Positions 2,357 to 61,911 of a DNA stretch of 64,000 nt are shown here, in pieces. The notes beneath the pieces are model-generated. The model was not told the origin of the DNA. It saw only the letters and a program-made list of their open reading frames with translations, and did no database searches. A program made the position numbers and the translations under genes. Source of the DNA: Candidatus Aminicenantes bacterium (lineage in GTDB: Bacteria; Acidobacteriota; Aminicenantia; Aminicenantales; Aminicenantaceae); contig CP070750.1 in the NCBI GenBank assembly GCA_020348385.1, forward strand, positions 4,264,520 through 4,328,519. Direction: 5' to 3'. Every line of letters starts with the position of its first letter. The first letter of the stretch is position 1.

Positions 2357-2419
2357 ACGGCCCAAATATTATAGAATAGGTATTTGCTCCATCATATCTC
2401 ATCAAACAAAGGTGATAGA

Positions 2420-5582: not shown

Positions 5583-5616
5583 CAAATTCCGTTTCCTTTT
5601 TTTAAATAGTATTTTT

Positions 5617-13466: not shown

Positions 13467-13476
13467 GATAAATTCC

Positions 13477-19161: not shown

Positions 19162-19165
19162 GATA

Positions 19166-21096: not shown

Positions 21097-21344
21097 TTCC
21101 GGCCTCTATATTCCTGCTTTGTTTCCCTGGCTTTGCGCTGCCGACAACCGGGAAGCTTCGAACAAATCCTGCAGGGTAAATCGATGACACAGGACGTTTT
21201 TTTCCCTGAGACCTTCCTCCAAGCAAGAGACAAACCCCCAAACGCCAGCCCGCTCAACAAAACCATCCGCACTCCATCCTTCAAAAACTCTCGCCTGTTT
21301 TTTTTCCTATGCTTCTCCTGCATCGTGAAACTCTCCTGCTTCAT
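21093..21344 (-). CDS. Small Tat-signal protein with a C-terminal Cys cluster (hypothetical)
   Basis: RREFLKDG twin-arginine motif plus a hydrophobic helix, then CVIDLPCRICSKLPGC and a basic tail. ATGA overlap with both flanking genes. 83 aa, so coding status is uncertain. Confidence 0.45.
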   Translation of the reverse strand: MKQESFTMQEKHRKKNRREFLKDGVRMVLLSGLAFGGLSLAWRKVSGKKTSCVIDLPCRICSKLPGCRQRKARETKQEYRGRK

Positions 21345-28118: not shown

Positions 28119-28598
28119 ATGAGAAAAAAAATCCAATTTAACCTCAACGGGAAAATAGTGAATGTGGCTTCTTTCCCGGACCGGATGCTTTTGTGGGTTC
28201 TGCGTTCTGATCTTGAACTCACAGGGACAAAATACAGTTGCGGAAAAGGTTTCTGCGGAGCCTGCACCGTGCTGGTCAATAACGAGCTGGTCCTGTCTTG
28301 TCAATTTCCTCTCAAGGAAGCGGAGGGAAAAAAAGTCTTGACGATCGAAGGACTGAAAAAAAATGGGAAACTTCATCCTTTGCAGGCGGCATTTATACAG
28401 CATAACGCCCTCCAGTGCGGTCACTGCACGCCAGGAATGATCATGGGAGCTTACGCCTTGCTTTTAGAGAATCCTGAACCCTCTGCCAGGGATATCATCG
28501 ACGGGATGGAAGGCAACCTCTGCCGATGCGGAAGCTACAACCGGATCATTCAAGCTATCCAAACGGTGGCCCGAGCCATCAGAGGAGGGACATCATGA
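28119..28598 (+). CDS. (2Fe-2S)-binding small subunit of a molybdenum hydroxylase (IorA/CoxS-like)
   Basis: CGKGFCGACTV and CGHCTPG...CRCGSY motifs typical of xanthine dehydrogenase / aldehyde oxidase small subunits. Confidence 0.9.
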   Translation: MRKKIQFNLNGKIVNVASFPDRMLLWVLRSDLELTGTKYSCGKGFCGACTVLVNNELVLSCQFPLKEAEGKKVLTIEGLKKNGKLHPLQAAFIQHNALQCGHCTPGMIMGAYALLLENPEPSARDIIDGMEGNLCRCGSYNRIIQAIQTVARAIRGGTS

Positions 28599-36618: not shown

Positions 36619-38745
36619 ATGAAGCTTAAATCAAGTTTTTTCCTCAGGATGGCCGTCATGTTTACCATGTTTGGTCTGATTATTCACGTTCCCCTGAACG
36701 CCGCACAAAAAGTGCCGATCAGCTTTGACAAATACCATGGCTTCTATGGCACGGTGGACTATCTCAAAGCCGTGGCCAAAGCCTATCCCGACATCACAAA
36801 ACTCCTGGATATCGGGAAAAGCACGATGGGCAGATCGATCTATGTCCTTGTGATTTCCAATATGGGAACAGGGACGACGATCGACGCCCATGTGGGCCTA
36901 CGAAACATGCGAAAAGAAGGGGTGAAAAATGTAATCCCGATGAAACCCTATCAAGGAAAACCAGCCCTATGGATCTCCGGAGCCACGCATGGGAACGAGT
37001 TCACCGGAACCGAGGTCTGCCTGTATACCATCGACAAACTGGTCTCAGGATATGGATCTGACGAGCAGGTCACAGCAATTATCGATAATAAAACCTTTTA
37101 CATCTGCCCGATTGTCAATCCGGATGGCGTGTACAACAGCGTGGAAAGGGGCATTCCGCAGAGAGCCAACAGCATGAATAAAGACGACGATAAAGATGGC
37201 AAAGTGAACGAGGATGGTCCAGACGACCTCGACAGTGACGGTCGGATCCTCCAGTTCCGTTACAAGAATCCCAAAGGGAACTATGTCGTGGACGACCAAG
37301 ACCCCCGCTTGATGATACGACTCCGGGGAAACCAGAAAACCGACAAGCCCCGTTATTCCGTTATCACAGAGGATAAAGATAACGATGGCGACAACAAGCA
37401 CGGGGAGGATTCAGAGTCAGGGATCGATCTCAACCGCAATTACCCCGAGGGCTGGTGGCGCACCGACGGTTTTGCCGGCGGAAAGGGGGACTACCCCATT
37501 TCAGCGCCTGAAACCCACGCCATGGCCGAATTTGTAACCAACCACACCAATATTCTGATGGCGCAAAATTACCATACATCGGGAGGATTCACCTTCCGGC
37601 CGATGGGGACAGCTCCACACACCAACCTTCACCCCAAGGATGTGGCGGTGATGGATTTCATCATGGGGAAAAAATACCTGGAGATCATCGGAGAAGATGT
37701 GCCGGAAGCATGGAAAAATCCCGAGGATCTGGATAAATATAAAGAAGAGCTCAAAAAAACATCGAAAAACAAATACGCCATCATGCGCGGATACGAGCTG
37801 CCAAGAGGTTGGAGAGTCAGCTACAACGAAGAACGGGACCAACGTTATGGATACGGCATGGCAGCTGACTGGATGTACATGCAATACGGCATGTTCGCCC
37901 TATGCACTGAACTCTGGAATCCGATGAATGACATCCGGGATTTCCCCAAACCCGAAGGGGATGTGAACTACACACAGATTCAACGGGAAGCGCTGAAATA
38001 CCAGGACGAAAAATACGACGGTAAACTTTTTATCGATTGGAAACCATACAATCACCCCGAGCTGGGTGAGGGTGAGATCGGCGGCTGGCTTCCCAACTTG
38101 CGTAACAATGCATGGCCCGGGGATCCGCTCCGTAAAGTCTGCCAAGACCATTGGCAGTTCACGCTCTTCCGCGCTGGGCTTTTACCGGAGGTCGTGATCA
38201 CCGATGTTAAGGCCGAGGTGTTGTACACAGCCAACAGCGCCAAAGAGGCAAAAGCTATTCAGAGTGGTGATCAGGTCACGATCAAAAAAGGGCAGTCAAA
38301 GGGAAAATTCAAGGTAATCAAGATCACAGCTCAAGTCAAAAACGAGGGGAAACTAGCCACCCATGTCGCCCGAGGAGCCCAACTTGCCGGAAATCGGGAG
38401 GATGTGATCTGGTTGGTAGGCGATCCCGCCAAAACAACTTATCTGTTGGGAACGCCATTCCAAAAGCTGGGAGTGATGGAAGGAACCATGAAAATTCCCG
38501 GGTACTCAGGACAAAGGATGCCGGCAGCCCCTGCCCAGCAGCGATCCCAGCGGCGGTTCTTCTATCCTCCGGGCTACCCGATGCCCTTCATGCGGCAACA
38601 ACGGAGGCAGCCGACCCGAGTTGACCAGAAGGGCCCTTCACGGACAGCCAAATGGCTGGTGGCGGTGGAAGGAAACACGCCGCTCAAAGTGGTTGTCAGT
38701 TCGCAGAAGGGCGGCACCAAAGCGAAACCTGTCTCTATCGATTAA
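36619..38745 (+). CDS. M14-family zinc carboxypeptidase with Asp-rich calcium-binding-like inserts and a C-terminal beta-rich domain
   Basis: Signal peptide. WISGATHGNEFTG (HxxE zinc-ligand motif) and later H. Inserts NKDDDKDGKVNEDGPDDLDSDGRI and DKDNDGDNKHGEDSESGIDLNRN. Confidence 0.8.
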   Translation: MKLKSSFFLRMAVMFTMFGLIIHVPLNAAQKVPISFDKYHGFYGTVDYLKAVAKAYPDITKLLDIGKSTMGRSIYVLVISNMGTGTTIDAHVGLRNMRKEGVKNVIPMKPYQGKPALWISGATHGNEFTGTEVCLYTIDKLVSGYGSDEQVTAIIDNKTFYICPIVNPDGVYNSVERGIPQRANSMNKDDDKDGKVNEDGPDDLDSDGRILQFRYKNPKGNYVVDDQDPRLMIRLRGNQKTDKPRYSVITEDKDNDGDNKHGEDSESGIDLNRNYPEGWWRTDGFAGGKGDYPISAPETHAMAEFVTNHTNILMAQNYHTSGGFTFRPMGTAPHTNLHPKDVAVMDFIMGKKYLEIIGEDVPEAWKNPEDLDKYKEELKKTSKNKYAIMRGYELPRGWRVSYNEERDQRYGYGMAADWMYMQYGMFALCTELWNPMNDIRDFPKPEGDVNYTQIQREALKYQDEKYDGKLFIDWKPYNHPELGEGEIGGWLPNLRNNAWPGDPLRKVCQDHWQFTLFRAGLLPEVVITDVKAEVLYTANSAKEAKAIQSGDQVTIKKGQSKGKFKVIKITAQVKNEGKLATHVARGAQLAGNREDVIWLVGDPAKTTYLLGTPFQKLGVMEGTMKIPGYSGQRMPAAPAQQRSQRRFFYPPGYPMPFMRQQRRQPTRVDQKGPSRTAKWLVAVEGNTPLKVVVSSQKGGTKAKPVSID

Positions 38746-38752
38746 ACGGAGG

Positions 38753-40228
38753 ATGAAGATGAAAATCAAAAGATTGATTAGATACACAGCCACTTTCCTA
38801 TTAGCCATGGTCTTGGTCCTGACTCCCCCAGGTTTTTCTCAGAAAAAACAACAAAAAAGCCCGGGCGGCTATCACGGGGAATTGGACTTTCCGATCAGCT
38901 GGAGCCGGTATTACAGCTATGCGGAGTGGACCAAGATCATGCACGACATCCAGAAAAAGTATCCTCAACTCGCGGATATCCAGTCCATCGGAAAAAGCCG
39001 GATGGGCCGAGACCAGTATTTGATCACCATCACAGCCAAGGAAACCGGAAATCATACTGAAAAAACAGCCATGTGGGTGGACGGGGCTATCCACGGTAAC
39101 GAGGTCAACGGGATCACCTGTTCTTTGTATTTGATGTGGTACCTGCTAACACGGTATGACTATGATCCCTATGTGCACGATCTGGTGGACAACTGCACTT
39201 TCTACATCCTGCCGGGACTGCATGTCGATGCCAACGAATCCTTTGTTATGCATCCCAACACCCCGAATAATCCGCGCGAGCCCTACCGGCCGGAAGATAA
39301 CGATGGCGATGGGCTTTATGATGAGGACCGAACCGAGGATGTGGACGGGGATGGGGAGCTCTCCACCATGTACATCGAGGATCCCAAAGGGACCTATAAG
39401 TTATCTGCTGATAAACGGCTGTTCGTACGGACGGATGATCCCGAAGAGGGAGTGCAACTATTCACGCGCATCGGAGGAGAAGGATACGACAACGATAGCG
39501 ATGGATTGATCAATGAGGACGATATCGGGGGACCTGATCCCAATCGGAATTTTCCGTACGGATGGAACCTTAATGCGGGTAATCCCTATCCGATGTCAGA
39601 GCCCGAATGCCGAAACGTGTTCGAGTTTCAACTCAAGCACCCGAACATCTTCGCCAGTTTTCATTATCACAACACGGGCCGTTTGATCATGTTCCAGGCT
39701 CCTCCAGCAGTTCGTGAGCCCGGGATGTCACCTGAACAAACCCAGCGCATGCGGGAAATGCAGGAACAGCGTCTGGCCTTGATGCGGGAAACCAACAAGT
39801 ATGCTCAACTTTTCGACCGCCAGGTAGCACCGGTCAATCAACACGATATGGATACCCAAACAGCCATCGTTACCGCAGGAGCACGGATTCTACAAAACTA
39901 CCGCCCGACCATCGCCGGGCTAAGCGGCCAGGCCCACGCCGCCACTTACTATATGCTCGGTGCCTACAGTTATCTGATCGAACTCTGGGGCTCGAATACA
40001 GAATATGCGGATATGGACGATGACGGCCGTGTTTCCGATGAAGAGATGCTCCAATGGATCGACATCGAGCTCATGGGTGAGGGTTGGATCGATCCCCACA
40101 AAGTCGACCATCCGGACCTGGGTGAGATCTGGATCGGCGGGACACCAAAAAAACACATTCGCAGAACCCCTCCTGCGCGGTATATCGAACAGGAAGCCTA
40201 TAAAAATGCCCAGTTCGTGATGTATTGA
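38753..40228 (+). CDS. M14-family zinc carboxypeptidase (paralog), terminated by an in-frame TGA that separates it from its C-terminal domain
   Basis: ACGGAGG RBS, ATG at 38753. WVDGAIHGNEVNG HxxE motif. Inserts EDNDGDGLYDEDRTEDVDGDGELS and YDNDSDGLINEDDIGGPDPNRN. The TGA at 40226-40228 aligns with an Arg codon of the paralog at 36619..38745. Confidence 0.75.
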   Translation: MKMKIKRLIRYTATFLLAMVLVLTPPGFSQKKQQKSPGGYHGELDFPISWSRYYSYAEWTKIMHDIQKKYPQLADIQSIGKSRMGRDQYLITITAKETGNHTEKTAMWVDGAIHGNEVNGITCSLYLMWYLLTRYDYDPYVHDLVDNCTFYILPGLHVDANESFVMHPNTPNNPREPYRPEDNDGDGLYDEDRTEDVDGDGELSTMYIEDPKGTYKLSADKRLFVRTDDPEEGVQLFTRIGGEGYDNDSDGLINEDDIGGPDPNRNFPYGWNLNAGNPYPMSEPECRNVFEFQLKHPNIFASFHYHNTGRLIMFQAPPAVREPGMSPEQTQRMREMQEQRLALMRETNKYAQLFDRQVAPVNQHDMDTQTAIVTAGARILQNYRPTIAGLSGQAHAATYYMLGAYSYLIELWGSNTEYADMDDDGRVSDEEMLQWIDIELMGEGWIDPHKVDHPDLGEIWIGGTPKKHIRRTPPARYIEQEAYKNAQFVMY

Positions 40229-40636
40229 GTCAGCGAGTTCACCAAAGTTGAAATATCAGATGTCGCTGTGAGGCCTGCCGCAGACAGCCTTTACTGGATC
40301 GAAACAACAGTCAAAAACGACAGGGTTTACCCAACTGCCTCGGATAGAGCTAAACAATTTAAACTGGTTGAACAGGATAGGATCATGCTCAAGGCATCGA
40401 ACAATATTGCGATGATCGAGGTTCCCAAAGGTTCAGCCGCCACCAACCCAACAAATCCCAATGCTCAGGTGGAAGTGATCACAAAAAAGGGAACAGAGTT
40501 TTGGCTCAAAGGAAAGGAGACTCTTCGTTTCGGCGCTTTGGTGAAAATGGACGGAAGTCAGGGTTGGATCGAAGTTCAAGTGAAGTCACAAAACGGAGGC
40601 ACAGACACGAAACGGATCAATCTCAAAATTCAGTAG
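40229..40636 (+). pseudogene. Same-frame continuation after the TGA. It encodes a C-terminal domain homologous to the C-terminal domain of the first M14 carboxypeptidase, so this is either a split/pseudogenised tail or a sequencing error.
   Basis: Translation VSEFTKVEISDVAVRP...VKSQNGG is in the same frame as 38753..40228. It aligns without gaps to ...LLPEVVITDVKAEVLY...VKNEG of the upstream paralog. The ORF track lists it only from a GTG at 40268. Confidence 0.5.
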
Positions 40637-40680
40637 ACTCGTATCGTTTTTAGCATAAATTTTAATTTTGCGAGGTTTTT

Positions 40681-42030
40681 ATGAAAACAAAAAAGTCTTT
40701 GTTTATCTTAACAGTCGTCCTTTTATCCATGGTTGTGGGAACGACACATCCTCAGGATATCGGAACCGCAGCAGTTCGTGACATCGACAACATTCTTCAG
40801 GAAAAAGATAGAGCAAAAGTCATGAACGAAATTCTGGAATGGAGGTTGGAACACATTATTCCCGAGCTGATGCGGAGGGAAAGGATCGATATGTGGCTCA
40901 TCATCTGCAGGGAGTATAACGAGGACCCGGTTTATCTGACTTTGGTACCAGAACCGACCATGGCCGCCCGCCGAACGTCTATCCTCATCTTCCATGATAA
41001 AGGAGAAGAAGAGGGCGTGGCCCGATTGACAGGCAGTTTCTATGGGATGGGAAAATGGTACAAATCCATCTTCACCGACCAAAGCAAAGACCAATTTGAA
41101 GTCCTGGCTGAATATATCAAAGAAAGCGCTCCGAAAAAAATAGGGATCAACGAATCGGAAACTTGGGCCTTCGGAGATGGGTTGTCCGCTTCATTCAAAG
41201 CCAGTTTAATCAAGGCCCTTGGACCTGAATTGTCAGCCCGTCTGGTTTCGGCGGAAAACCTGTGTGTGGGATGGCTGGAAACGCGGAGCCCTCGTGAACT
41301 GAGCCTGTATCGTCACATCTGCGGGATCGCTCATGACATCATTGCCGAATTCTTTTCTAATCAGGTGATCGTTCCCGATGCAACCACCACGGAGGACGTT
41401 GTCTGGTGGATCCGACAAAGGATCACGGGACTCGGGCTAGAACCATGGTTTCAGCCTTCTGTCTCGATTCAACGATCCAAGAAGGACTCGGAGTTGTATA
41501 AAGACAACCCTCGTGTGATCCGGCGGGGAGACCTGTTGCATTGTGATGTCGGCATCGTCTATTTGGGACTATGCACGGACACTCAAGAGAACGCTTACGT
41601 GTGCCGAATCGGCGAAACCGATGCCCCGGAGGGATTGAAAGAAGCGCTGCGGAGGGGAAACCGGTTGCAGGATATCGTGATGGCAGAACACCGTTTCGGC
41701 CGAACCGGCAACGAAGTTCTCAGTACTTCTCTCGAAAAGGCCAAGGCCGAAGGCCTGACTCCTGCCGTTTACTGTCATCCCCTCGGTGTTCATGGCCACG
41801 CAGCCGGATTTGTGGTTGGTCTCTGGAATCGACAGGACGGCGTCCCGGTTAGAGGTGACTATCCTTTGTATTACAACACATGCTACGCGATCGAAATGAA
41901 CAATAAGTATGAAGTTCCGGAGTGGAACAATCAGGAGATCCGGATGGGCCTGGAAGAGGGCGGTGTGTTTACCAAAGGTGGCTGCCATTTCATCGACGGG
42001 CGTCAAACAAAGCTTTTTCTTATTAAATAA
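40681..42030 (+). CDS. M24-family metallopeptidase (Xaa-Pro aminopeptidase / creatinase-like), secreted
   Basis: Signal peptide. Creatinase-like N-domain and a pita-bread-fold C-domain with metal-ligand-like residues (HCDVGIVY, H...HGHAAGF, E). Confidence 0.7.
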   Translation: MKTKKSLFILTVVLLSMVVGTTHPQDIGTAAVRDIDNILQEKDRAKVMNEILEWRLEHIIPELMRRERIDMWLIICREYNEDPVYLTLVPEPTMAARRTSILIFHDKGEEEGVARLTGSFYGMGKWYKSIFTDQSKDQFEVLAEYIKESAPKKIGINESETWAFGDGLSASFKASLIKALGPELSARLVSAENLCVGWLETRSPRELSLYRHICGIAHDIIAEFFSNQVIVPDATTTEDVVWWIRQRITGLGLEPWFQPSVSIQRSKKDSELYKDNPRVIRRGDLLHCDVGIVYLGLCTDTQENAYVCRIGETDAPEGLKEALRRGNRLQDIVMAEHRFGRTGNEVLSTSLEKAKAEGLTPAVYCHPLGVHGHAAGFVVGLWNRQDGVPVRGDYPLYYNTCYAIEMNNKYEVPEWNNQEIRMGLEEGGVFTKGGCHFIDGRQTKLFLIK

Positions 42031-52949: not shown

Positions 52950-55223
52950 TTACTCAATGTTCCACTTTCCATTTTTCAAGTACTGATCGATGGATTGAGC
53001 CGCATTTTTTCCCGCACCCATCGCAAGGATAACGGTGGCCGCACCCGAAACGATATCGCCACCGGCAAAAACACCCTTTTTCGATGTCCGGCCCGTTTCT
53101 TCATCAGCCACGATGTTTCCCCATTTTGTCAGTTTTAGGTCGGGTGTTGTCGAAGTCAACAAAGGATTGGGCCCCTGGCCGATGGCCACGACCACCATAT
53201 CCACATCGATGACATGCTCAGAGCCCTCAATAGCAACGGGACGCCTCCGGCCAGAATCATCCGGCTCTGTCAGTTCCATCTGGACACATTCCAATCCTTT
53301 GACCCACCCTCTATCATCGCCCAAGATCCGTACAGGATTGGTTAACAAACGGGATTCGATGCCTTCTTCAAATGCATTTTCGATCTCCTCTTCCCGAGCA
53401 GGCATTTCCTCGCGGGATCTCCGGTAAACCAGGTAGACCTTTTCTGCACCCAAGCGAAGGGAAGTTCGAGCTGAATCCATGGCCACGTTCCCTCCGCCGA
53501 TGACCGCGATCCTTTGGCCAAGACGGATGGGCGTGTTGTATTCGGGAAAAAGATAAGCTTTCATCAGATTGACTCGTGTCAAAAACTCATTCGCCGAATA
53601 AACGCCGTTCAGGTTCTCTCCCGGAATATTCAGAAAATAGGGCAATCCTGCCCCAGTCCCTATAAACACCGCATCGTATCCATCCTCGAGAAGCTGGTCC
53701 ACTGTTTTGGCTTTGCCCACGATATAACTGACTTTGATATCCGCTCCCAACTTCCCGATGTAATCGCTCTCCCTCTGGACAATCCATTTAGGGAGACGAA
53801 ACTCGGGAATGCCGTAAACAAGAACCCCTCCCGGTGCATGAAGAGCCTCGAAAACCGTGACTCCGTGACCGATCTTGCACAATTCCCCGGCAACAGTGAG
53901 CCCAGCAGGGCCGGCCCCGATAACGGCAATCCTTTTCCCGGTGGATTCGGGAAGCTTCGGGACGCGTGTTTCGCCCTGGTTGAATTCATAATCCGCCACA
54001 AACCGTTCCAACCGCCCTATGGCGACGGGATCTTTTTTCTTCCCTAGGATACATTCCACCTCACACTGCTCCTCTTGAGGGCATACTCTGCCGCACACGG
54101 CAGGCAGGCTGTTTTTTTCCTTGATCTTGTGGATGGCGCCCATGAAATCGCCTTCTTTAATTTTGGCGACAAACGCCGGAATATCGATATCCACCGGGCA
54201 TCCGGCCACACAAAAGGCTTTTTTACACTGGAGACAGCGTGAGGCCTCGCGCATGGCTTGCTCCCGGGTGTATCCCAGTGCCACCTCGTCAAAATTCTGG
54301 ATCCGCATTTTGGGATCCTGTTTGGGCATGGGCTCCCGTTTGTTTGCTCTTTTGAGGTTATCTTCGGCTTGCTGCAGCCGGCATTCATAATCCCACATGG
54401 CGCGGTGTTCTTCCCGGATATACATCTCTGAGCGTTGCATGAGCTCGTCAAAATCGACCTGATGGCCGTCAAACTCCGGCCCATCCACACAAACGAATTT
54501 TGTTTCTCCTCCGACTGTGATCCGACATCCGCCGCACATGCCTGTCCCATCCACCATCAAGGAGTTGAGGCTCACGATGGTTTTGATGCCCGGCTCCTTT
54601 GTGATATCGGCCACGGCCTTCATCATTATCCCTGGGCCTACGGCCACGACTTTATTGATCTCTGTTCCATCTGAAAGAAGCTTTTTCAGCACATCCGTTA
54701 CAAATCCACGATGCCCTGCGGAGCCATCATCTGTAGCGATATCCAGCTCGTCACTTATCGCCCGCATCTCGTCTTCCAGGATGAGCATTTCCTTGGATCT
54801 TGCCCCGATGATGGAAATGATGCGGTTTCCCGCTTGTTTAAGCGCTTTGGTTATCGGGTACACAGGAGCGACACCGACGCCCCCTCCGATACACACCACG
54901 GTTCCCTCGCTCTCTATTTCTGTCGCCTCACCCAAGGGACCGACAACATCGAGAAAAGAATCTCCCACATTCAAGGAATCCATTTTTCGTGTTGCTGTCC
55001 CCACAACCTGTGCGATTAGCGTGATGGTCTCTTCTTTTATGTCTTTATCCGCCACCGTTAAGGGGACTCGCTCGGCATAATCATCTGTCCGGATGACGAC
55101 GAACTGCCCCGCTTTCACAGCATTGGCAACCACCGGTGTGTGTATTTTGAACAATGTGATGGAGGGAGCTATGCTCTCTTTATGGATAATCTCATTCAAC
55201 TTGTATCTTTCATTAATGCTCAT
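52950..55223 (-). CDS. Fused NfnA/SudB-like (FAD/[2Fe-2S] ferredoxin-NADP reductase-type) and NfnB/GltD-like (2x[4Fe-4S], FAD, NADPH) oxidoreductase
   Basis: N-terminal PyrK/SudB-like domain (GTVVCIGGGVGVAPV...CGGC). C-terminal GltD-like domain with CLQCKKAFCVAGCP, VCPQEEQCEVEC, and Rossmann motifs IAVIGAGPAGL and IAVIGGGNVAMD. Probable start is MSINERYKL at 55223, preceded by AAGAGG. Confidence 0.8.
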   Translation of the reverse strand: MSINERYKLNEIIHKESIAPSITLFKIHTPVVANAVKAGQFVVIRTDDYAERVPLTVADKDIKEETITLIAQVVGTATRKMDSLNVGDSFLDVVGPLGEATEIESEGTVVCIGGGVGVAPVYPITKALKQAGNRIISIIGARSKEMLILEDEMRAISDELDIATDDGSAGHRGFVTDVLKKLLSDGTEINKVVAVGPGIMMKAVADITKEPGIKTIVSLNSLMVDGTGMCGGCRITVGGETKFVCVDGPEFDGHQVDFDELMQRSEMYIREEHRAMWDYECRLQQAEDNLKRANKREPMPKQDPKMRIQNFDEVALGYTREQAMREASRCLQCKKAFCVAGCPVDIDIPAFVAKIKEGDFMGAIHKIKEKNSLPAVCGRVCPQEEQCEVECILGKKKDPVAIGRLERFVADYEFNQGETRVPKLPESTGKRIAVIGAGPAGLTVAGELCKIGHGVTVFEALHAPGGVLVYGIPEFRLPKWIVQRESDYIGKLGADIKVSYIVGKAKTVDQLLEDGYDAVFIGTGAGLPYFLNIPGENLNGVYSANEFLTRVNLMKAYLFPEYNTPIRLGQRIAVIGGGNVAMDSARTSLRLGAEKVYLVYRRSREEMPAREEEIENAFEEGIESRLLTNPVRILGDDRGWVKGLECVQMELTEPDDSGRRRPVAIEGSEHVIDVDMVVVAIGQGPNPLLTSTTPDLKLTKWGNIVADEETGRTSKKGVFAGGDIVSGAATVILAMGAGKNAAQSIDQYLKNGKWNIE

Positions 55224-55233
55224 TTTTGACCTC

Positions 55234-56721
55234 TTAGTCTTTGCGATGCTCAAGCGGAAGGAACACAGAAAAGATGCTTCCTTTATCGGGTTCGCTCGTC
55301 ACCTCGATGCGTCCAAAATGGGAATTCACGATTTTGCTGGCTATCGTGAGGCCGAGTCCCGTACCGGGTATTTTTTTTGTCCTTTCATCATCGGCTCTGT
55401 AGAAATCATCGAAAATACAGGAAAGGTGTTCGGCTGAAATACCGATGCCCGTGTCCTTTATCCTATAGCAGACAAAGTTGCCTTCAACCTTGCCTTCAAG
55501 GAAGACCGATCCGTTTTTCCTGTTGTATTTGATCGCATTGCTTATCAAATTGGTGAAAAGCTTTTCCATGTCTCTCACATCAGCCTGGATCGAGGGAAGG
55601 TCTTCTGCCAATTCGGCCGCGATGGACACCTTGTGTTTTTCGGCATCCGGTCCAAGCAAATCCACGATTTTGAGGATGATATCATTAATTTTAACAGGGC
55701 CCATCTTTTGTGCGACCTTGCCTGTTTCCATCCGGTTGATCACAAGGAGATCATCGACAAGAGCCAACAAAGAGTCAGAACGGTCCATGGCCCGCTGAAG
55801 CCACTGCTTATTCTGCTCAGCATCCCCCCCAGCCTCTCCTGAAACAACCACCTCCAGCCAACCTTTGATCGCAGCCATCGGCGCCCTGAGCTCATGGGCG
55901 ACCATCGATACAAACTGTGACTTGATCTTGTTGATTTCCTTGAGTGCTGTGATGTCTCTAAGAACCGTCACTGCCCCAAGGATTTTGCCATCCTCGTCCC
56001 TGACAGGCGCAATATTGGCCATCAAAATGACCTTTTCATCCTGAGCGGGAATCTCGTGACTTATCATCGAAAAATCCTGATCGTCCGAATTCAAGATCTC
56101 TTTGATGGCTACGATAAGCGGTTCATTCGAAATGTAATACTCGAGGGGTTCTCCGGCTATATCAAAACCCTTGGACTTAAGCATCTTGACACTGGAAGCA
56201 TTCCATAGCACCAACCGACCTTCCAGATTGGCCACCAAAACGCCATCGGCCATACATCCGATAATCGTGCGCAACCGGCTTCTCTCGTTCACAAGCTCCA
56301 GCATTTTTTGCGTCCTCTCAGCATAGAGTTTTTTCGCTTCTAGACGGAGCATCCGCTTTTCCAATCCGCGCTTAACCACTACGGAAAGTGCCTCGGGTGA
56401 GAAGGGTTTGGGCAGATAATCGTATGCGCCAAGCTTTGTCGCTTCCACGGCTGTTTCTATCGTTGCATTCCCTGTTATCACGACCGTTATGATCTCGGGA
56501 TCACAATGATGAACTTTTTTGATCAGTTCCATGCCTCCTATCCCCGGCATCATCAAGTCCACCAAGATGAGGTCATAATTTTTCTCTTTCACCTTCTGGA
56601 GGCCCGTCTTGCCATCCTCTGCAGCATCTACGGCATAACCTTCTTCGGAGAGAGCTCGCTTGCAGCCCTCCCGGATTCCCATCTCATCATCCACGATCAG
56701 GATGTTCGCTTCTGTGTTCAA
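55234..56721 (-). CDS. Hybrid two-component protein: N-terminal receiver (REC), PAS-like region, HisKA, HATPase_c
   Basis: ILIVDDE...DLILVDLMMPG...ITGNA receiver. H-box VAHELRAPMAAI. N/G boxes LISNAIKYN, DTGIGI, GTGLGLTIA. Confidence 0.85.
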   Translation of the reverse strand: MNTEANILIVDDEMGIREGCKRALSEEGYAVDAAEDGKTGLQKVKEKNYDLILVDLMMPGIGGMELIKKVHHCDPEIITVVITGNATIETAVEATKLGAYDYLPKPFSPEALSVVVKRGLEKRMLRLEAKKLYAERTQKMLELVNERSRLRTIIGCMADGVLVANLEGRLVLWNASSVKMLKSKGFDIAGEPLEYYISNEPLIVAIKEILNSDDQDFSMISHEIPAQDEKVILMANIAPVRDEDGKILGAVTVLRDITALKEINKIKSQFVSMVAHELRAPMAAIKGWLEVVVSGEAGGDAEQNKQWLQRAMDRSDSLLALVDDLLVINRMETGKVAQKMGPVKINDIILKIVDLLGPDAEKHKVSIAAELAEDLPSIQADVRDMEKLFTNLISNAIKYNRKNGSVFLEGKVEGNFVCYRIKDTGIGISAEHLSCIFDDFYRADDERTKKIPGTGLGLTIASKIVNSHFGRIEVTSEPDKGSIFSVFLPLEHRKD

Positions 56722-56722
56722 T

Positions 56723-57124
56723 TTAATCCTCTTTTTCTCCGATTAATTTTTCGACTTTGCTGATGAGAACCGCAGGTTCGACGGGTTTGTCGAGAAACTC
56801 ATCTGTTTTCATCCAGTAGCCGTCCTTCTCTAACGAAAACTTGAAGCCTGTTGCATCGGCCACGGCTGTCACCATCAGGATGGGGATTTTTTTAAATAAC
56901 GGATCGCTTTTGATCTGTTTGCTGAAGGAAAATCCAGCATCATGTTTTTCCATCATCAAATCCAAGACGATCAGATCTGGCATTTCTGCTCGCACTTTTT
57001 CCAATCCCTCTTGAGCACTGGTGGCAGTTATCACCTCGTATCCGTGATTCACCAACACAACTTTATGCATTTCGAGAAAATCCAGATCATCATCCACCAA
57101 TAAGATTCGTTTTTTTAGAGTCAT
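56723..57124 (-). CDS. Single-domain response regulator (CheY-like receiver only)
   Basis: RILLVDDDLDFLEM...DLIVLDLMME...ILMVTA...K. 133 aa with no output domain. Confidence 0.85.
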   Translation of the reverse strand: MTLKKRILLVDDDLDFLEMHKVVLVNHGYEVITATSAQEGLEKVRAEMPDLIVLDLMMEKHDAGFSFSKQIKSDPLFKKIPILMVTAVADATGFKFSLEKDGYWMKTDEFLDKPVEPAVLISKVEKLIGEKED

Positions 57125-59180
57125 CTTCCCCTCCTTTCTGCACTTTATTCAAATTAACAATCTTACTCTCGCCCTTCATCCACTCTTTTTGATCCAAAAC
57201 AGGAAGCTGAATGAAAAATTCTGCTCCTTTTCCCAACTCGCTTTTCACATCGATCGTCCCCTTGTGTTTGGACACAATCCCGTAGACTAGAGCCAACCCT
57301 AGCCCTGTCCCTTTTCTCTTTGTCGTGAAAAAAGGATCAAAAAGACGGGAAAGGTGTTCCTCTGCAATTCCTTTCCCCGTATCTTGAATCTGGATTTCGA
57401 TCGCGCTCCTCCCGTTTTTAGATTGACTTCTGATTGTCAAAACACCACTCCCTTCCATGGCTTGAGCCCCGTTCAGGATGATGTTGAAAAAGACCTGCTT
57501 GAGCAGATCAGGGACGGCAAACGTGGTCGGGATCGAGGCCTCCAGTTCTTGTTTCACCTCAATATTCCGGAATAAGGATCGTTTGATGAGAAGAGAGACC
57601 GCCTCTTCGATAATACTGTTGATGTTCACAAGCCCGGGTTTCCATTGGGTCTCCCGAGAAAAACCCAACAGGTCCTTGACTATCTTGGCAGCTCTTTCTG
57701 CCTCTTTGATGACAAGGTCGATGTCCTTTTCCCACTTAGGATTGTGAGCCAAATCTTTCTTCAGCATGCTGCTGAAAAGGGTGATCGTTCCCAAGGGATT
57801 GTTCAATTCGTGGGCCACGCCGGCTGCCAACTGACCGATCGAAGCCAGCTTTTCCGACTGGATGAGCTGTCTCTGGGCCTTTTCCAATTCCTCATGTGAA
57901 ATTTTAAGCTCCTGATGAGATTTCTCCAGACGGGAGTACAGGCGTCGTGATTGGGTGAGAAGATAATGCATGCACATTTCTTTATCCGCCAGACCCTGCA
58001 TGACGGCGATGGCCTTCTCGCGGCAGGTGTTGAAACCACATGCTCCGCAATCCAGATTCCGATTGGGATAGGTCTTGCCCAATTCAGCCAAAACAGCCCG
58101 GATCTCTTCTTCCTTCGGCTCTGGCAGAGATATATCTTGAACAGAAAAGGCGCGTTCAAGGTCCATTGAGGTCAATTTTATAGCAACGTCTTTATCTCCT
58201 TCCCAAACCTCCTCGCTTTGAGACTCAAAAAAATCCACGACAATCTGCTTTCGGCCCGGTCCCGAAATATTCTTGTCCACGATAGGCCCATCGATGCAGC
58301 CTTGACAAAAAAGCACATCGAGAAACTTGGGTCGGATGGCCCCATCCTGCAATTGTTGGAGAGCCCTTATGGCACTCTTCGGACCCGCCGTAATCACGTT
58401 ATCCAAATTCACCAAGTCCTGTTCGAACCCAACGCATTTGGACATTCCGCCAGAGACGCTGAGCACTCTGCCAAGACCCGGCTGAGGTCCATCAAACGCG
58501 GATTCCTTCTGCTTTTCTCGCCTGCTGCCTTTGGCGTTGAGTATATCTCTGTTATCGTGGTAGGTCAGAACACAATCAACGATCCCAGCCAGATGGGGGA
58601 TACGGCACTCATGAATCCGGGAGATACAGGAGCCGAAAAACACCACTTTGGTCTCATCTCCCCGAAGCTTCTTGATGGCTTTACCTGTCGCCACCATCGG
58701 CGAAACCACAGGCAAGAGATGATCGACCAACTGTGGTGCAAATTTTTCGATGTAAAGCACGACCGAGGGACAGAATGAAGAGATATAGGACGTCTTGGCG
58801 TCTTTCCACAGCCATTTTCGATACTCCCGGCTGATCAGGTCTCCGCCGAGAGCAGATTCCCATACTTCCTGGAATACTAGCTTTTTCAGGGCCGTCACCA
58901 ACTGACCCGGCGTTCCCACATCCAGAACAGCCGGGAAAGTGGGATCGAGGCACGCGATCATCTTTTCCCCCGCGTCCAGGCCATCCAAAACCAAGTTCAC
59001 GCCTGTTTGTGTCTGGACAGCCCCATGCGGGCAGTACTTGTAACAGGATCCGCATAATATACAGCGGTTCTCGATCCGAACCACTTTCCTCTGCTCAAGC
59101 ATCAAGGCATTGGTGGGGCAATCCCGCACACACCGGCCGCACAACCGACACTTCTGCCTTGAAATGCTTAAATATTCCAT
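57090..59180 (-). CDS. Sensory [FeFe]-hydrogenase-like (HydS-type H-domain) histidine kinase with N-terminal 2x[4Fe-4S] ferredoxin domain
   Basis: N-terminal CRLCGRCVRDCP + CILCGSCYKYCP. H-domain-like motifs SSFCPSV (cf. TSCCP, first Cys replaced by Phe), FFGSCISRIHE (cf. MPCxxKxxE, Met replaced by Gly), FCQGCIDGP (cf. CxxGCxxG). CGACGFNTC-x16-C matches Cx2Cx4Cx16C. These are followed by a coiled coil, H-box AAGVAHELNNPLG, and N/G boxes ILNGAQAM, DTGKGI, GTGLGLALV. Confidence 0.75.
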   Translation of the reverse strand: MEYLSISRQKCRLCGRCVRDCPTNALMLEQRKVVRIENRCILCGSCYKYCPHGAVQTQTGVNLVLDGLDAGEKMIACLDPTFPAVLDVGTPGQLVTALKKLVFQEVWESALGGDLISREYRKWLWKDAKTSYISSFCPSVVLYIEKFAPQLVDHLLPVVSPMVATGKAIKKLRGDETKVVFFGSCISRIHECRIPHLAGIVDCVLTYHDNRDILNAKGSRREKQKESAFDGPQPGLGRVLSVSGGMSKCVGFEQDLVNLDNVITAGPKSAIRALQQLQDGAIRPKFLDVLFCQGCIDGPIVDKNISGPGRKQIVVDFFESQSEEVWEGDKDVAIKLTSMDLERAFSVQDISLPEPKEEEIRAVLAELGKTYPNRNLDCGACGFNTCREKAIAVMQGLADKEMCMHYLLTQSRRLYSRLEKSHQELKISHEELEKAQRQLIQSEKLASIGQLAAGVAHELNNPLGTITLFSSMLKKDLAHNPKWEKDIDLVIKEAERAAKIVKDLLGFSRETQWKPGLVNINSIIEEAVSLLIKRSLFRNIEVKQELEASIPTTFAVPDLLKQVFFNIILNGAQAMEGSGVLTIRSQSKNGRSAIEIQIQDTGKGIAEEHLSRLFDPFFTTKRKGTGLGLALVYGIVSKHKGTIDVKSELGKGAEFFIQLPVLDQKEWMKGESKIVNLNKVQKGGEDDSKKTNLIGG

Positions 59181-59204: not shown

Positions 59205-59885
59205 CTAGCTTGTCAGCCTTTCGATCTCATCGATCAAGACTTTGGGGCTCACGGGTTTATCCAGGAGAACATCCGCCCCGCTGATTTTCAGGACATCATC
59301 GCTGGATGAAAAATCCAAGTTCGTCTGCGCACTGATCGAGGTCAATAACATGACGGGGAGATCTTTGTGCTTTTGCTTGATCTTCTCGCTGGCTTTGAAA
59401 CCCGAATCGAACTGCTCCATCATGACATCGAGAATAACGATGTCAGGTTTAGCCTCATCTAAGACAGCCATGCATTCCTTCGAGCTCCGGGCTGTAACGA
59501 CCGCATAACCCCTATGCTCCAACACAGCAGTATGCATTTCTAAAAAATCTCTATCATCATCCACAAGAAGGACCTTTTTAGGCGTTCCCTCCACCTGCTT
59601 GCTGTCTTTTTTCGTCACCAATGAGAGGATACGGCGAAGACTCTCAGGATCTTCGATCGCTTCCTCGACTTTTGTGACCAATTGATCACCCTCGTAATAA
59701 GAGTACTCGATCTTGCAATCGCACTGGACGTGGCAGCGGAAGATTTGTTTCATCGCATCTTCCGTGTCCGCAATATCCAGCTTTTCGCCTTCAAAATAAG
59801 GACAGGCCGTCCACTCCCCCGGACTTATCATTTCCTGACATTCCGGACAATACACTTGAATGAAAGGTTTCGTCTTATTTTCCAT
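59205..59885 (-). CDS. Response-regulator receiver protein with N-terminal Cys-rich (zinc-ribbon-like) domain
   Basis: N-terminal CPECQEMISPGEWTACPYFEG...CHVQCDC (7 Cys + His). C-terminal receiver VLLVDDDRDFLEM...DIVILDVMME...VMLLTS...K. No DNA-binding domain. Confidence 0.75.
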   Translation of the reverse strand: MENKTKPFIQVYCPECQEMISPGEWTACPYFEGEKLDIADTEDAMKQIFRCHVQCDCKIEYSYYEGDQLVTKVEEAIEDPESLRRILSLVTKKDSKQVEGTPKKVLLVDDDRDFLEMHTAVLEHRGYAVVTARSSKECMAVLDEAKPDIVILDVMMEQFDSGFKASEKIKQKHKDLPVMLLTSISAQTNLDFSSSDDVLKISGADVLLDKPVSPKVLIDEIERLTS

Positions 59886-60040
59886 TATTCCCTGCTCCTG
59901 TTATAAAAAGCCTATTATTATAGATTATGATTTAAACACAGATTTTGTTAGGTTAATGCCAAATGATGGCTATTTATCTTATCAAATACCTCAGAAATTC
60001 AGTAATTTATATTTTAAACGAAACAGGGTGATATTTCAAT

Positions 60041-60097
60041 AAAAAAGGGGACGGTTCTATTTTTTTTGTTAAAAAAAATAGAACCGTCCCCTTTTTT
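60041..60097. repeat. Perfect 27-bp inverted repeat with a 3-nt loop (A-run/GC-core/T-run on both arms). Candidate bidirectional intrinsic terminator or operator.
   Basis: aaaaaaggggacggttctatttttttt-gtt-aaaaaaaatagaaccgtcccctttttt read directly at 60041-60097. It lies in the divergent spacer between genes ending/starting at 59885 and 60150. Confidence 0.5.
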
Positions 60098-60149: not shown

Positions 60150-61229
60150 ATGGCTGAACGACTCAAAGACATGTTTTTCACCCGAGAATCGATCGATAAA
60201 TTTGCAGATACGATAAAACTGCATTATTCGGACTTCGAAAAGTCAGAATTTCTAAAGCACATGTTCGATGAATCTTTCGAAGCAAAAGAACTGCTGGACA
60301 AGATGAAACACACGACAAAATGTTTGTTTGACACACTGCCTAAACCATACAAAAAAGCTCTCGATATCTTGATAAAAGCGGCGCCAGATGTCAAAGGATT
60401 CGAAGCGATGGCCCTTCCAGACTTTGTGGCCACCTACGGAATGGATGATTGGGATCTGTCTTTGCCTGCCTTGAGACACTTCACACAGTACTATTCATCC
60501 GAGCTGGCCATCCGACCTTTCCTGGCCAAAGATCCTGAAAAAGGCATGACCACCATGGCCGCCTGGGCAGAAGATAAAAATCCAAAGGTCCGCCGACTGG
60601 CCAGCGAGGGCTGCCGCCCGAGGCTCCCTTGGGCCATGGCACTGCCCAAATTTAAAAAAGACCCAAGCCTCGTGTTGCCCATCTTGGAAAAACTGAAAGA
60701 CGATGTGTCGGAAGATGTACGGCGAAGCGTTGCCAACAACTTGAACGACATCTCCAAAGACAATCCCAAATTGGCCTTGGGAATCTGCGAGAACTGGTAC
60801 GGGCAGTCAGAAAAAGTGGATAAAATCGTGAAACATGCCTGCCGCACCCTGCTCAAGGCAGGAGACAAACGGGCTCTTGCGATTTTTGGGTACAGCGATC
60901 CGGATTTGATCAGTGTAGAAAATCTAAGCCTCGATAAAGAAGCTTTGAATATCGGAGATGTTTTAACCTTTTCATTTGATATCATCGTCACAAAAAAAAG
61001 CAAAGTCCGTCTGGAGTATGCGGTTTATTTTGTCAAAGCCAAGGATAAACTTTCAAAAAAAGTGTTTAAGATCACGGAAAAAGATTATGAATCAGGAAGC
61101 TTTTCTATCGCGAGGAAACAGTCCTTCATAGAGCAGACAACCCGAAAACATTATCCCGGCATACACCAGATTTCCATCATCGTGAATGGGGAAGAAAAGG
61201 CTAAAGCTTCGTTTGAACTGACAAAGTAG
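60150..61229 (+). CDS. DNA alkylation repair protein (HEAT-like repeat AlkC/AlkD family) with C-terminal extension
   Basis: GGGAGG RBS. PKVRRLASEGCRPRLPWA and VRRSVANNLNDISK are typical of the DNA-alkylation-repair-enzyme (AlkC/AlkD) HEAT-like fold. A ~110-aa C-terminal beta-rich tail resembles the extra domain of AlkC. Confidence 0.6.
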   Translation: MAERLKDMFFTRESIDKFADTIKLHYSDFEKSEFLKHMFDESFEAKELLDKMKHTTKCLFDTLPKPYKKALDILIKAAPDVKGFEAMALPDFVATYGMDDWDLSLPALRHFTQYYSSELAIRPFLAKDPEKGMTTMAAWAEDKNPKVRRLASEGCRPRLPWAMALPKFKKDPSLVLPILEKLKDDVSEDVRRSVANNLNDISKDNPKLALGICENWYGQSEKVDKIVKHACRTLLKAGDKRALAIFGYSDPDLISVENLSLDKEALNIGDVLTFSFDIIVTKKSKVRLEYAVYFVKAKDKLSKKVFKITEKDYESGSFSIARKQSFIEQTTRKHYPGIHQISIIVNGEEKAKASFELTK

Positions 61230-61278: not shown

Positions 61279-61911
61279 CTAAAATCGGTCATAAACGATG
61301 GCCTCCTTGAGATCCTTTTTCGGAGGCGTTTCGGGCCATTTATCCGGAATACCTATAGGAGTTATGCAGACCCTTTTGTAATTATCGGGTATATTGAGTA
61401 TTTTATTAGTTACATCCTCGGGAATAGAATTCACACAAAAAACAGAGCCATATCCTAAAGCTCGCGCGGCAAGCATAAGGTTTTCTGCAGCCAGAGCACC
61501 AGCAGTTGCATCGTTCACCGGATTCCTCGTTTGGGTATCGGCCAACACGACCACATAAACAGGCGCCGACATATAGTCGGTGAAATACTGTTTACTCTGC
61601 TCTCCTCCCCTTTTTATGCACTCATCTCTTATCTGATCCAAAATATCCCGGTTTTTGATGACCACAAATTTCCAAGCCTGTCTGTTTCTAGGGCAGGGAG
61701 CATAGTGGGCTGCTTCCAGGATTTGGAGAATGTGTTCATCCGGCACGGGTGTGGGCTTGAATTTCCGAACCGAGCGGCGCGTTTTGAAAGTTATGAACAG
61801 ATCCGTTTGGGACTGCGAATCCTCTGTCACTGCGGCAAACGGAGAACAGAAAAATCCTGCAGACCCCACAAATCCGGTTTTTAGAAATTGTCGTCTTTTT
61901 GTAGTTTTCAT
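61279..61911 (-). CDS. Nitroreductase-family flavoprotein with twin-arginine (Tat) signal peptide
   Basis: MKTTKRRQFLKTGFVGSAGFF Tat leader. Nitroreductase-family motifs (RRSVRKF, ...AAENLMLAARALGYGS). Confidence 0.75.
   Translation of the reverse strand: MKTTKRRQFLKTGFVGSAGFFCSPFAAVTEDSQSQTDLFITFKTRRSVRKFKPTPVPDEHILQILEAAHYAPCPRNRQAWKFVVIKNRDILDQIRDECIKRGGEQSKQYFTDYMSAPVYVVVLADTQTRNPVNDATAGALAAENLMLAARALGYGSVFCVNSIPEDVTNKILNIPDNYKRVCITPIGIPDKWPETPPKKDLKEAIVYDRF

Follow-up and report, generated by a model that had tools for sequence, protein, structure and literature searches.

A Kinase-Fused HydS-Type Sensor with an Altered Diiron Pocket at an Nfn-Linked Locus of Candidatus Aminicenantes

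The Sensor Kinase Gene and Its Domain Anatomy

The stretch of DNA analysed here (hereafter the window) comprises 64,000 nucleotides of a Candidatus Aminicenantes bacterium (contig CP070750.1). Its reverse strand carries, at 57090..59180, an ATG-started gene for a sensor histidine kinase of 696 amino acids (aa), which was recognised in the list of open reading frames and with Pfam and NCBIfam. In accordance with an earlier note made from the letters alone, the Pfam domains place a ferredoxin, an [FeFe]-hydrogenase-type H-domain and a histidine kinase in a single open reading frame, with exact coordinates. By its sequence relationships the gene is a member, by descent, of the HydS-derived sensor kinase family. 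The new element is the group to which it belongs, that is, a branch with an altered [2Fe] pocket and a linkage to Nfn-type genes, which stands beside the sensor kinases of the hyd operons.

The profiles that had been proposed as a check (Fe_hyd_lg_C, Fer4, HisKA, and HATPase_c) all matched in Pfam. The N-terminal part (residues 6-55, 59016..59165 on the reverse strand, as are all parts of the gene) is a 2x[4Fe-4S] ferredoxin-like domain found by Fer4, Fer4_6, Fer4_7, and Fer4_10. Its eight cysteines (11, 14, 17, 21, 40, 43, 46, and 50) are all at least 90% conserved among the distant representatives. The H-domain (residues 75-299, 58284..58958) is matched by PF02906 (Fe_hyd_lg_C) over model positions 4-245 of 245, with E=1.8e-38 and 133 bits against a cutoff of 22.1. 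A PDB sequence search gave T. maritima HydA as the top match (7p5h_A, E=1.7e-22), with further matches of the H-domain to T. kivui HydA, CpI, and DdH. At the level of sequence, the likeness to [FeFe] hydrogenases is real and far beyond chance. A spurious similarity of the Nar1/NARF type, named in the earlier note as a possible pitfall, is ruled out by the cluster ligands, the HydS-type C-terminal motif and the bacterial sensor relatives located in hyd operons.

Behind the H-domain, the motif C378-x2-C381-x4-C386-x16-C403 (57969..58055) shows exactly the Cx2Cx4Cx16C spacing of the accessory cluster that had been noticed. It lies within a match to PF04060 ("FeS", residues 376-404, E=7.5e-8) and is invariant in 124/124 and in 72/72 representatives. 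The following region (approximately residues 404-448, 57837..57971) leads from C403, the last ligand of the cluster, into the helix of HisKA. It contains no Pfam domain and stands where HydS has its PAS domain; the Pfam scan found no PAS domain in the whole 696-aa kinase. The AlphaFold2 secondary structure, of low confidence, suggests a single continuous helix over residues 404-459. The full-length model itself, built on an alignment of 12 sequences, was unusable (mean predicted local distance difference test score 50.9, with most of the H-domain below 50).

The direct passage through a helix into an intact kinase had also been described correctly. The HisKA dimerisation and phospho-acceptor domain (residues 449-511, 57648..57836, Pfam E=1.6e-13) contains the H-box AHELNNPLG with H457 as phospho-acceptor, and HATPase_c follows at residues 556-661 (57198..57515, Pfam E=2.3e-23). 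A motif scan located N566 of the N box, the G1 box DTGKGI at 600, the F box FDPFF at 614 and the G2 box GTGLGL at 624. The protein has therefore all five boxes (H, N, G1, F, and G2) of a class I HisKA-type kinase (NtrB/AtoS-like), and both Pfam domains exceed their cutoffs. The kinase half matches the NCBIfam models of AtoS and ZraS in part, under their equivalog cutoffs. No transmembrane segment was found in the 696 residues, and a membrane sensor is ruled out by the maximum Kyte-Doolittle 19-mer score of 1.18. The identity is 87% to a relative on CAYPGQ010000009.1 and 59-63% to proteins named Candidatus Aminicenantes.

H-Cluster Ligands and the [2Fe] Pocket

In order to compare the pocket, the window protein was aligned with 84 homologues that have a fused kinase, 22 paralogues that lack one, and 73 HydA proteins encoded nearby, and in a second alignment with its 150 nearest representatives (50% identity). 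The numbering of CpI was carried over by alignment and motif identity, not by structure. The window branch consists of the window protein and nine related loci, L001 to L009 (n=10), with 58-89% identity in the sensor part. Its name, Aminicenantes-type, rests on sequence; some labels of metagenome-assembled genomes (MAGs), such as "uncultured Eubacteriales" for L004, are probably wrong. The 75 closest kinase-fused relatives outside the branch, 31-40% identical across residues 1-420 (the sensor part), are referred to as the mainstream.

The motifs SSFCP (134-138), GSC (183-185), and CQGC (292-295) supply all four H-cluster cysteines that had been claimed. C137, C185, C292, and C295 align with the [4Fe-4S]H ligands C300, C355, C499, and C503 of CpI and are invariant in the branch. 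The last cysteine pair is Cx2C, a spacing shared with the kinase-fused group, whereas it is Cx3C in CpI, in HydA-like proteins and in the HydS of Thermotoga maritima (TmHydS), where it was read from mutagenesis primers as FIEASACYGSC. The loss of Cys299, M353 to Gly, M497 to Leu, and Q325 to Met are common to the window protein and all sensors.

The two replacements that the earlier note had compared to HydS are present, namely C299 to F136 and M353 to G183. Other pocket positions are changed as well: K358 to R188, K359 to I189, P354 to S184, A230 to D79, S232 to T81, F417 to L240, and M497 to L290. SSFCP, GSCISRI, and DVLFCQGC stand in place of the catalytic motifs TSCCP, MPCxxKK, and ExMxCxxxC, which sets the protein outside groups A and B. 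Likewise, its TIGR04105 score of 172 bits falls short of the cutoff of 450 for this catalytic family.

The same replacements separate the branch from the mainstream. At A230-P231-S232 the mainstream has A-P-S (A-P-A in 2/75) and the branch D-P-T. P354 is conserved in 75/75 mainstream proteins, while nine of the ten branch members have Ser. At K358-K359, Lys is found in 75/75 and 74/75 of the mainstream, respectively, against Arg-Ile in all ten branch members. Phe or Tyr occupies position 417 in 74 of 75 mainstream sequences, and Leu or Met in the branch. Position 299 is variable in the mainstream (Asp 50, Thr 9, Ala 6, Pro 5, others 5) but Phe in 10/10 of the branch. The consensus around C355 is consequently G-(S/P)-C-I-S-R-I in the branch and G-P-C-x-x-K-K in the mainstream. 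Among the 150 nearest representatives, K358 is retained in 130 and P354 in 140.

In CpI, K358 contacts the distal cyanide, and A230, P231, S232, P354, and F417 line the [2Fe] cavity (PMC10147833). Sensory enzymes conserve the residues that stabilise [2Fe] by hydrogen bonds (PMC10055695). In the window protein these residues, K358 and the A230-P231-S232 loop, are not conserved. The claim that the substitution pattern is the one of HydS stands thus for C299 and M353 but fails for the residues bonding [2Fe], which HydS keeps.

Asp79 accompanies Arg or His at position 188 in 5/6 cases, as opposed to 8/124 for Lys (Fisher p=2.6e-5). This covariation suggests an interaction of the side chains, and the Asp-Arg pair may take over the contact of Lys with the cyanide. 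The altered residues are invariant across the branch at 58-100% identity, which is an indication that the site is under selection and not decaying. The stronger proposal that the D79/R188 pair proves the loss of [2Fe] was rejected, since the pair occurs also in two HydA-like subunits.

The Kinase-Fused Family and Its Hydrogenase Operons

At least 120 protein clusters have the identical full-length architecture with 59-91% identity, and those that are named come from Candidatus Aminicenantes MAGs. The genome scan used one genome per species and was seeded by kinase H-box patterns, so it favours kinase-fused relatives. Its best 80 loci mostly span query residues ~8 to ~660. Full-length relatives are scattered over Bacteroidales and other Bacteroidota, Hydrogenedentota, Myxococcota, Ignavibacteria/Melioribacteraceae, Nitrospirota, Omnitrophota, Elusimicrobia, Syntrophales, Bacillota, Spirochaetes, Melainabacteria, Fibrobacteres, and Planctomycetota.

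Residues 60-420, used as the query of an exhaustive HMMER search, retrieved 2442 representatives (50% identity) at E<=1e-3, 307 of them at E<=1e-30. In a sample of 72 from among the best representatives, Pfam detected Fe_hyd_lg_C together with PF04060 in 72/72. The outputs fused to this module are HisKA/HATPase_c in 27, PAS in ~19, sigma-54 activator AAA+ domains in 11, and GGDEF in four. Such variety points to a modular input domain, of which the kinase is the commonest output. Nine of the 11 sigma-54 activator fusions (representatives P0121-P0269) also have an HTH_8 domain, and a one-polypeptide path from HydS to a sigma-54 activator may rival the kinase fusion in interest.

The neighbourhood of the mainstream was surveyed in 74 loci outside the branch, within 10 kb on either side, by targeted tblastn with the annotated proteins of the Elusimicrobium locus L028. 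HydA is present in 68 of the 74, and its end usually lies immediately upstream of the sensor kinase gene. HydB (65), HydC (61), Rex (36), HydG (30), HydE (16), and HydF (14) are the other neighbours. The typical order is hydC-hydB-hydA-sensor kinase-REC-REC_HK, that is, with a receiver (REC) gene and a receiver-histidine kinase (HK) gene behind the sensor. For instance, L028 has the order Rex-HydC (NuoE-like)-HydB (NuoF-like)-HydA-sensor kinase-REC-REC-HisKA-HATPase_c-HydG-HydE-HydF. Its HydA belongs to the NCBIfam "NADH-dependent [FeFe] hydrogenase, group A6" (806 bits vs. cutoff 765), and its HydG, HydE, and HydF exceed their equivalog cutoffs. From this gene context, it is well supported that the mainstream family is a one-polypeptide, H-cluster-based H2-sensor kinase. 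The H2-to-phosphoryl converter of the earlier note fits, therefore, the wider family, with HydA in most loci, but not this branch, where hydA, hydE, hydF, and hydG are all absent from ten loci.

Two hydABC operons encode HydA-like subunits with an unusual pocket (L069:6590-8314 and L082:5875-7599; DPG / SSDCP / T- or A-PCTARK / TA). With 657-680 bits against the group A6 cutoff of 765, these subunits form a divergent catalytic-type subgroup.

In 22 loci (L020:3480-5342 on the reverse strand, L026, L053, L077, L083, and 17 more) a second sensor-like paralogue is encoded, which is ~620 aa long and lacks a kinase. These paralogues belong to hyd loci of Bacteroidota and Omnitrophota and adjoin a SpoIIE/PP2C phosphatase gene and a short 2Fe-2S thioredoxin-like gene. 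K358 is replaced by Ala, Ser, or Thr in 19/22 and the Cys aligned to C499 by Asn, Asp, or Thr in 9/22. They look like a clearer case of H-cluster decay.

Comparison with Known Sensory Hydrogenases

The fused design is not new. HydDB has listed "[FeFe] group C1, histidine kinase-linked (putative)" since 2016 (Sondergaard 2016, PMC5037454), and the kinase fusion of group C hydrogenases was already noted in Elusimicrobia (Méheust 2020, bioRxiv 10.1101/765248). The window protein is linked to a histidine kinase within one polypeptide, as in group C1. Its branch lacks the other feature of this group, the co-location with hydrogenase structural or maturation genes. The fusions of HydDB C1, or of Elusimicrobia, Ignavibacteria, and Caldithrix, have the same architecture of two Fer4, H-domain, Cx2Cx4Cx16C, and HisKA-HATPase_c, and mainstream C1-type fusions share with the window protein the Cx2C pair, the changes at M353 and M497, and the downstream REC and REC-HK genes. 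The differences lie in the pocket, where mainstream members mostly have Asp at C299 besides the conserved residues described above, and in the neighbours. Mainstream members follow hydCBA, with Rex and hydGEF, whereas the window branch is Nfn-linked and has no hyd genes nearby.

The C-terminal Cx2Cx4Cx16C cluster is a hallmark of groups C and D (PMC8163306). The window protein combines it with the N-terminal 2x[4Fe-4S] part and the H-domain, as HydS does, and Cys299 and Met353 are likewise not conserved (F136/G183 vs. A131/G177 in TmHydS). In group C (M2f) a PAS domain follows the C-terminal cluster; here, a linker of ~45 residues leads into HisKA instead.

TmHydS, a biochemically characterised member of group C (M2f) with a putative sensory role, resembles the window protein in its N-terminal clusters, its compact H-domain, the similar spacing of its cysteines (132/179/269/273 vs. 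137/185/292/295), the lost proton-relay Cys, the Gly at M353, and the C-terminal cluster. On the contrary, it has a PAS domain and no kinase, keeps P354 and K358 in GPCIAKK, has Cx3C, and carries Ala at 299. Its local sequences, taken from the mutagenesis primers, are ITT-A131-C-PVVV, VFV-G177-P-C-IAKK, F-Y223-P, and FIEA-S267-A-C-YGS-C. TmHydS demonstrably binds [2Fe]. The corresponding features of the window protein are GSCISRI, Cx2C, Phe, and a kinase fused directly to the sensor part.

The HydS of Thermoanaerobacter mathranii (TamHydS, group D, M2e) is similar in having two Fer4, the H-domain, the C-terminal [4Fe-4S] cluster, Leu at M497, and no PAS. Unlike the window protein, its kinase is a separate gene, M353 is replaced by Ser, and it binds [2Fe] and turns over H2. 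In TamHydS, H2 leaves the C-terminal cluster unreduced, so that cluster reduction is not established as the signal, which calls for caution in all versions of the mechanism. The logic of a crippled hydrogenase that senses H2 and feeds a histidine kinase is also known from the regulatory [NiFe] hydrogenase with HoxJ (HydDB [NiFe] group 2b, "histidine kinase-linked"), which controls hydrogenase genes; however, the metal site and fold are unrelated, and sensor and kinase are separate polypeptides.

A precedent for an H-domain without [2Fe] is Nar1/NARFL (IOP1), a eukaryotic homologue which keeps the [4Fe-4S]-ligating cysteines and works without [2Fe] in cytosolic iron-sulfur (Fe-S) assembly. It has no kinase and no Cx2Cx4Cx16C motif, and it is not among the close matches of the window protein, which in the PDB and in NCBIfam are bacterial hydrogenases.

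Loss of hyd Genes and Gain of Nfn-Type Partners in the Branch

The loci of the branch were searched in the window and in 10 kb on either side of the nine related genes. Neither hydA, hydE, hydF, hydG nor Rex was found in any of the ten loci, and no hydrogenase or maturase is present in the remaining 57 kb of the 64-kb window. The contrast with the 74 mainstream loci is strong for hydA (0/10 vs. 68/74, p=2.9e-9) and present for hydG (p=0.012). A fused Nfn-like gene shows the opposite distribution, since it occurs in 9/10 branch loci and in 4/74 others (Fisher p=1.8e-8), and the contig of the tenth is truncated.

In two loci (L001:1965-8941 and L084:2682-9557) the sensor gene follows a five-gene operon, whose genes are, in order, NuoE-like, NuoF-like, one for a subunit of 755-761 aa, NfnA-like, and NfnB-like. 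This subunit begins like group A6 HydA, with a match over its first ~110 residues to the HydA N-terminus, and continues as a NuoG-like molybdopterin fold with no H-domain. L001 is an Aminicenantes-type contig of 1.95 Mb. L084 carries P0121, the nearest outgroup, with 42% identity, the pocket DPA/SSFCP/TPCLAHI, and His at position 188. From its gene content, the operon resembles one for a complex of HydABC type that has exchanged its H-domain and acquired Nfn subunits. Its position is the one of hydCBA before the sensor, and the NuoG-like fold stands for the H-domain, which indicates that the partner enzyme lost its hydrogenase domain.

Independent data come from published genomes of the group. 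In seven incomplete Aminicenantes MAGs, HydDB typing gave no group A or B [FeFe] hydrogenase and one "C1" call, along with [NiFe] group 3b in 7/7 and group 3c in 3/7 (Dong et al. 2019). A hot-spring Aminicenantes bin was also described with [NiFe] enzymes only.

The Cassette and Its Neighbourhood

The sensor kinase is the second gene of a cassette REC-sensor kinase-REC-REC-PAS-HK-Nfn-like, which is conserved in related contigs and lies entirely on the reverse strand of the window. The first gene (59205..59885) encodes a 226-aa protein with a Pfam Response_reg domain at residues 105-221. Its Cys-rich N-terminal extension of ~100 aa has six cysteines (CPEC...C...C...C.C) and no Pfam match, and might act as an input or output domain of a zinc-ribbon-like or metal-binding kind. 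A REC gene of 230 aa is found at the equivalent position in L001-L003 and L005.

Downstream of the kinase there is a single-domain receiver protein of 133 aa (56723..57124, Pfam). The 3′ end of the kinase gene and the start of this gene overlap by 35 nt (57090-57124) in different frames. Similar overlaps recur in L001 and L002, and one of 17 nt in L084, which suggests translational coupling. A REC gene of 128-135 aa follows the kinase in the mainstream loci as well.

The next gene (55234..56721, Pfam) encodes a hybrid REC-PAS-HisKA-HATPase_c kinase of 495 aa. This partner is conserved in the branch and at the P0121 locus, while mainstream hyd operons have a REC-HK without PAS at the equivalent position; it is likely the second step of the relay. 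The last gene of the cassette (52950..55253) encodes a fused NfnA/NfnB-like iron-sulfur flavoprotein of 767 aa, which is composed of a DHOD-B-type FAD/NAD subunit and a GltD-type NADPH subunit and scores 1110 bits on NCBIfam PRK12778 (cutoff 1103). It is the likely regulated or partner enzyme.

Upstream of the first gene, the best sigma-70-like match on the same strand is TTGAAA-17-TAAAAT (10/12, 60011..60039), a weak result of a consensus scan in which sites were no more numerous than expected from shuffled sequence. Just upstream of it, a perfect inverted repeat with a 20-bp stem (GGGGACGGTTCTATTTTTTTT...AAAAAAAATAGAACCGTCCCC, 60046-60092) is terminator-like on both strands. It sits between the cassette, whose first gene extends to 59885, and a divergent gene at 60150-61229. 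A nitroreductase gene (Pfam) is located nearby, at 61279-61911.

About 40 kb from the sensor, the reverse strand at 13477-17438 encodes a NuoE-NuoF fusion of 786 aa, 49% identical to Elusimicrobium HydB, followed by a protein with 2Fe-2S, Fer4_20, and Pyr_redox_2 domains (GltD-like). This is a hydrogenase-less HydBC/Nfn-type module, possibly electron-bifurcating. Fer4 proteins are encoded close to it, at 19166-21096.

The window also contains, at 2384-26519, at least nine paralogous PQQ_2/BamB-like beta-propeller proteins among ABC/FtsX transporter and glycosyltransferase genes (2384-3835, 4245-5714, 5617-6981, 12306-13913, 17446-19194, 22345-23862, 23771-24994, and 25158-26519, plus an NHL-repeat protein at 21341-22330). 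Other genes of redox and amino-acid metabolism occupy the forward strand at 89-2356, 28526-30712, and 36619-42030. They include a protein of 755 aa with a GXGXG domain of the glutamate-synthase type, a subunit that binds molybdopterin (MoCoBD, xanthine-dehydrogenase family), two M14 carboxypeptidases and an M24 peptidase, a set which fits a peptide-fermenting lifestyle.

Proposed Signal and Alternative Explanations

The replacement of the residues anchoring [2Fe] and the missing hyd linkage mean that the window protein lacks two defining features of a sensory hydrogenase. The absence of hydA, hydE, hydF, and hydG from ten loci, together with the ties to Nfn-type enzymes, makes H2 a doubtful signal here. 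We give an even chance to the reading in which an H2 sensor gave rise to an Fe-S redox sensor kinase that responds to the poise of ferredoxin and NAD(P)H. The protein would be a soluble cytoplasmic sensor in which the ancestral H2-sensing module was re-purposed in the Aminicenantes-type branch. A wire of four clusters would be kept, namely two [4Fe-4S] at the N-terminus, one [4Fe-4S] from the former H-cluster and the Cx2Cx4Cx16C cluster at the C-terminus, whereas the remodelled pocket most likely would hold no [2Fe]H. The clusters would equilibrate with the low-potential electron pool, that is, ferredoxin and indirectly NAD(P)H, either directly or via a partner enzyme. Their redox state would travel from C403 through the helix into the DHp helix with H457 and there set the autokinase or phosphatase activity. 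The phosphoryl group would be handed on to one or both of two receivers, the neighbouring single-domain REC and the REC domain within the hybrid REC-PAS-HK. This relay would control the Nfn-like NAD(P)H/ferredoxin oxidoreductase co-transcribed with it, and probably further genes for redox balance. The fuller evolutionary version is held with confidence just below even: here the H-domain would have been stripped of its diiron subsite, and the H2 sensor turned into a kinase of ferredoxin/NAD(P)H poise, in step with the change of its partner from a HydABC hydrogenase to a hydrogenase-less Bfu-type/Nfn transhydrogenase, with a NuoG-like fold instead of the HydA H-domain.

Several observations weigh against a redox sensor without [2Fe] and speak, for the most part, for a genuine H2 sensor kinase, in which a full H-cluster is bound and Arg188/Asp79 replace Lys358 as the anchor of the distal cyanide. 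The four H-cluster cysteines are retained, including the match to the bridging C503, as is the HydS-type C-terminal cluster. Arg188 preserves the positive charge of K358. A230D with K358R and C299F with F417L are possible compensatory pairs that keep a working [2Fe] pocket, and the D230/R358 pair is present also in the two divergent HydA-like catalytic-type subunits of hydABC operons (L069 and L082), so an H-cluster may tolerate it. A similar loss of C299 and M353 is seen in characterised HydS proteins, which still bind [2Fe]. The literature search found no biochemical study of any kinase-fused member, mainstream included. The mainstream sits in hyd operons with maturases. The absence of hydEFG in the branch covers the 64-kb window and 10 kb on either side of nine loci, not a whole genome, and the typed MAGs are incomplete, so maturases encoded elsewhere may make the H-cluster. 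One of these MAGs received a "C1" call. Finally, Aminicenantes metabolise H2 by [NiFe] enzymes, which makes an H2 signal physiologically sensible. In such a sensor, H2 would reduce the cluster chain and the kinase would report the H2 partial pressure, tuning the Nfn-type NADPH/ferredoxin balance to the H2 of the [NiFe] group 3b/3c hydrogenases; the NADP-linked 3b enzyme of the MAGs means that H2 bears on the NADPH balance.

Nevertheless, an H2 sensor is considered rather unlikely for this branch. Its loci have no hydA, hydE, hydF, or hydG, genes that are frequently linked elsewhere, and with no group A or B [FeFe] hydrogenase in the seven MAGs, three maturases would have to be kept for the sensor alone. 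A230, S232, P354, K358, F417, and also K359 are replaced, a bulky Phe stands beside the expected position of the azadithiolate bridge, and in the partner operon HydA has given way to a NuoG-like subunit. An improbable alternative is a sensor docked on a hydrogenase-less HydABC/Bfu-type-plus-Nfn complex, in the place of HydA/HydS, where it would exchange electrons with this enzyme instead of sampling free ferredoxin, and would report the turnover or redox state of that complex. The gene comes directly after NuoE-NuoF-NuoG-like-NfnA-NfnB in L001 and L084, mainstream sensors hold the same operon position after hydA, and the window has its NuoE-NuoF fusion and 2Fe-2S/GltD-like gene at 13477-17438; but only the fused Nfn-like gene, not the NuoE-NuoF operon, adjoins the sensor in the window and in L002-L005, and operon position by itself does not show docking or physical interaction. 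Slightly less probable still is a sensor of oxidants (O2, NO, or reactive oxygen species), in which an exposed [4Fe-4S] cluster is destroyed or converted and thereby switches the kinase of a strict anaerobe. This principle is established for NreB and FNR. The four clusters with Cys ligands, in the cytoplasmic kinase of an anaerobe, and the nearby nitroreductase gene would suit it, yet the conserved partners are NAD(P)H/ferredoxin oxidoreductase and Bfu-type operons and not oxidative-stress genes, and the links of the ancestral family are to H2 and to redox control of the Rex type.

Significance

The kinase-fused family bears on how putative sensory [FeFe] hydrogenases transmit their signal. 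Its output, autophosphorylation, is easily assayed, so the question of whether H2 switches a HydS becomes directly testable, an opportunity offered mainly by the mainstream members of the hyd operons and not by the window gene. Homology-based tools (HydDB "C1") may count proteins like the one of the window as a sign of [FeFe]-based H2 sensing where the genome contains no [FeFe] hydrogenase.

If the reading as a redox sensor without [2Fe] is true, the branch would be a prokaryotic signalling counterpart of Nar1/NARFL and a natural experiment on which pocket residues decide the binding of [2Fe]. The two branches form a natural contrast set, since in one of them the pocket residues are replaced and the partner is swapped for hydrogenase-less NuoEFG-like/Nfn complexes. 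Taken together, they would open the signalling of sensory [FeFe] hydrogenases to experiment. Their comparison could reveal which residues are needed for [2Fe] insertion, as well as how anaerobes such as Aminicenantes sense the balance of ferredoxin and NAD(P)H.

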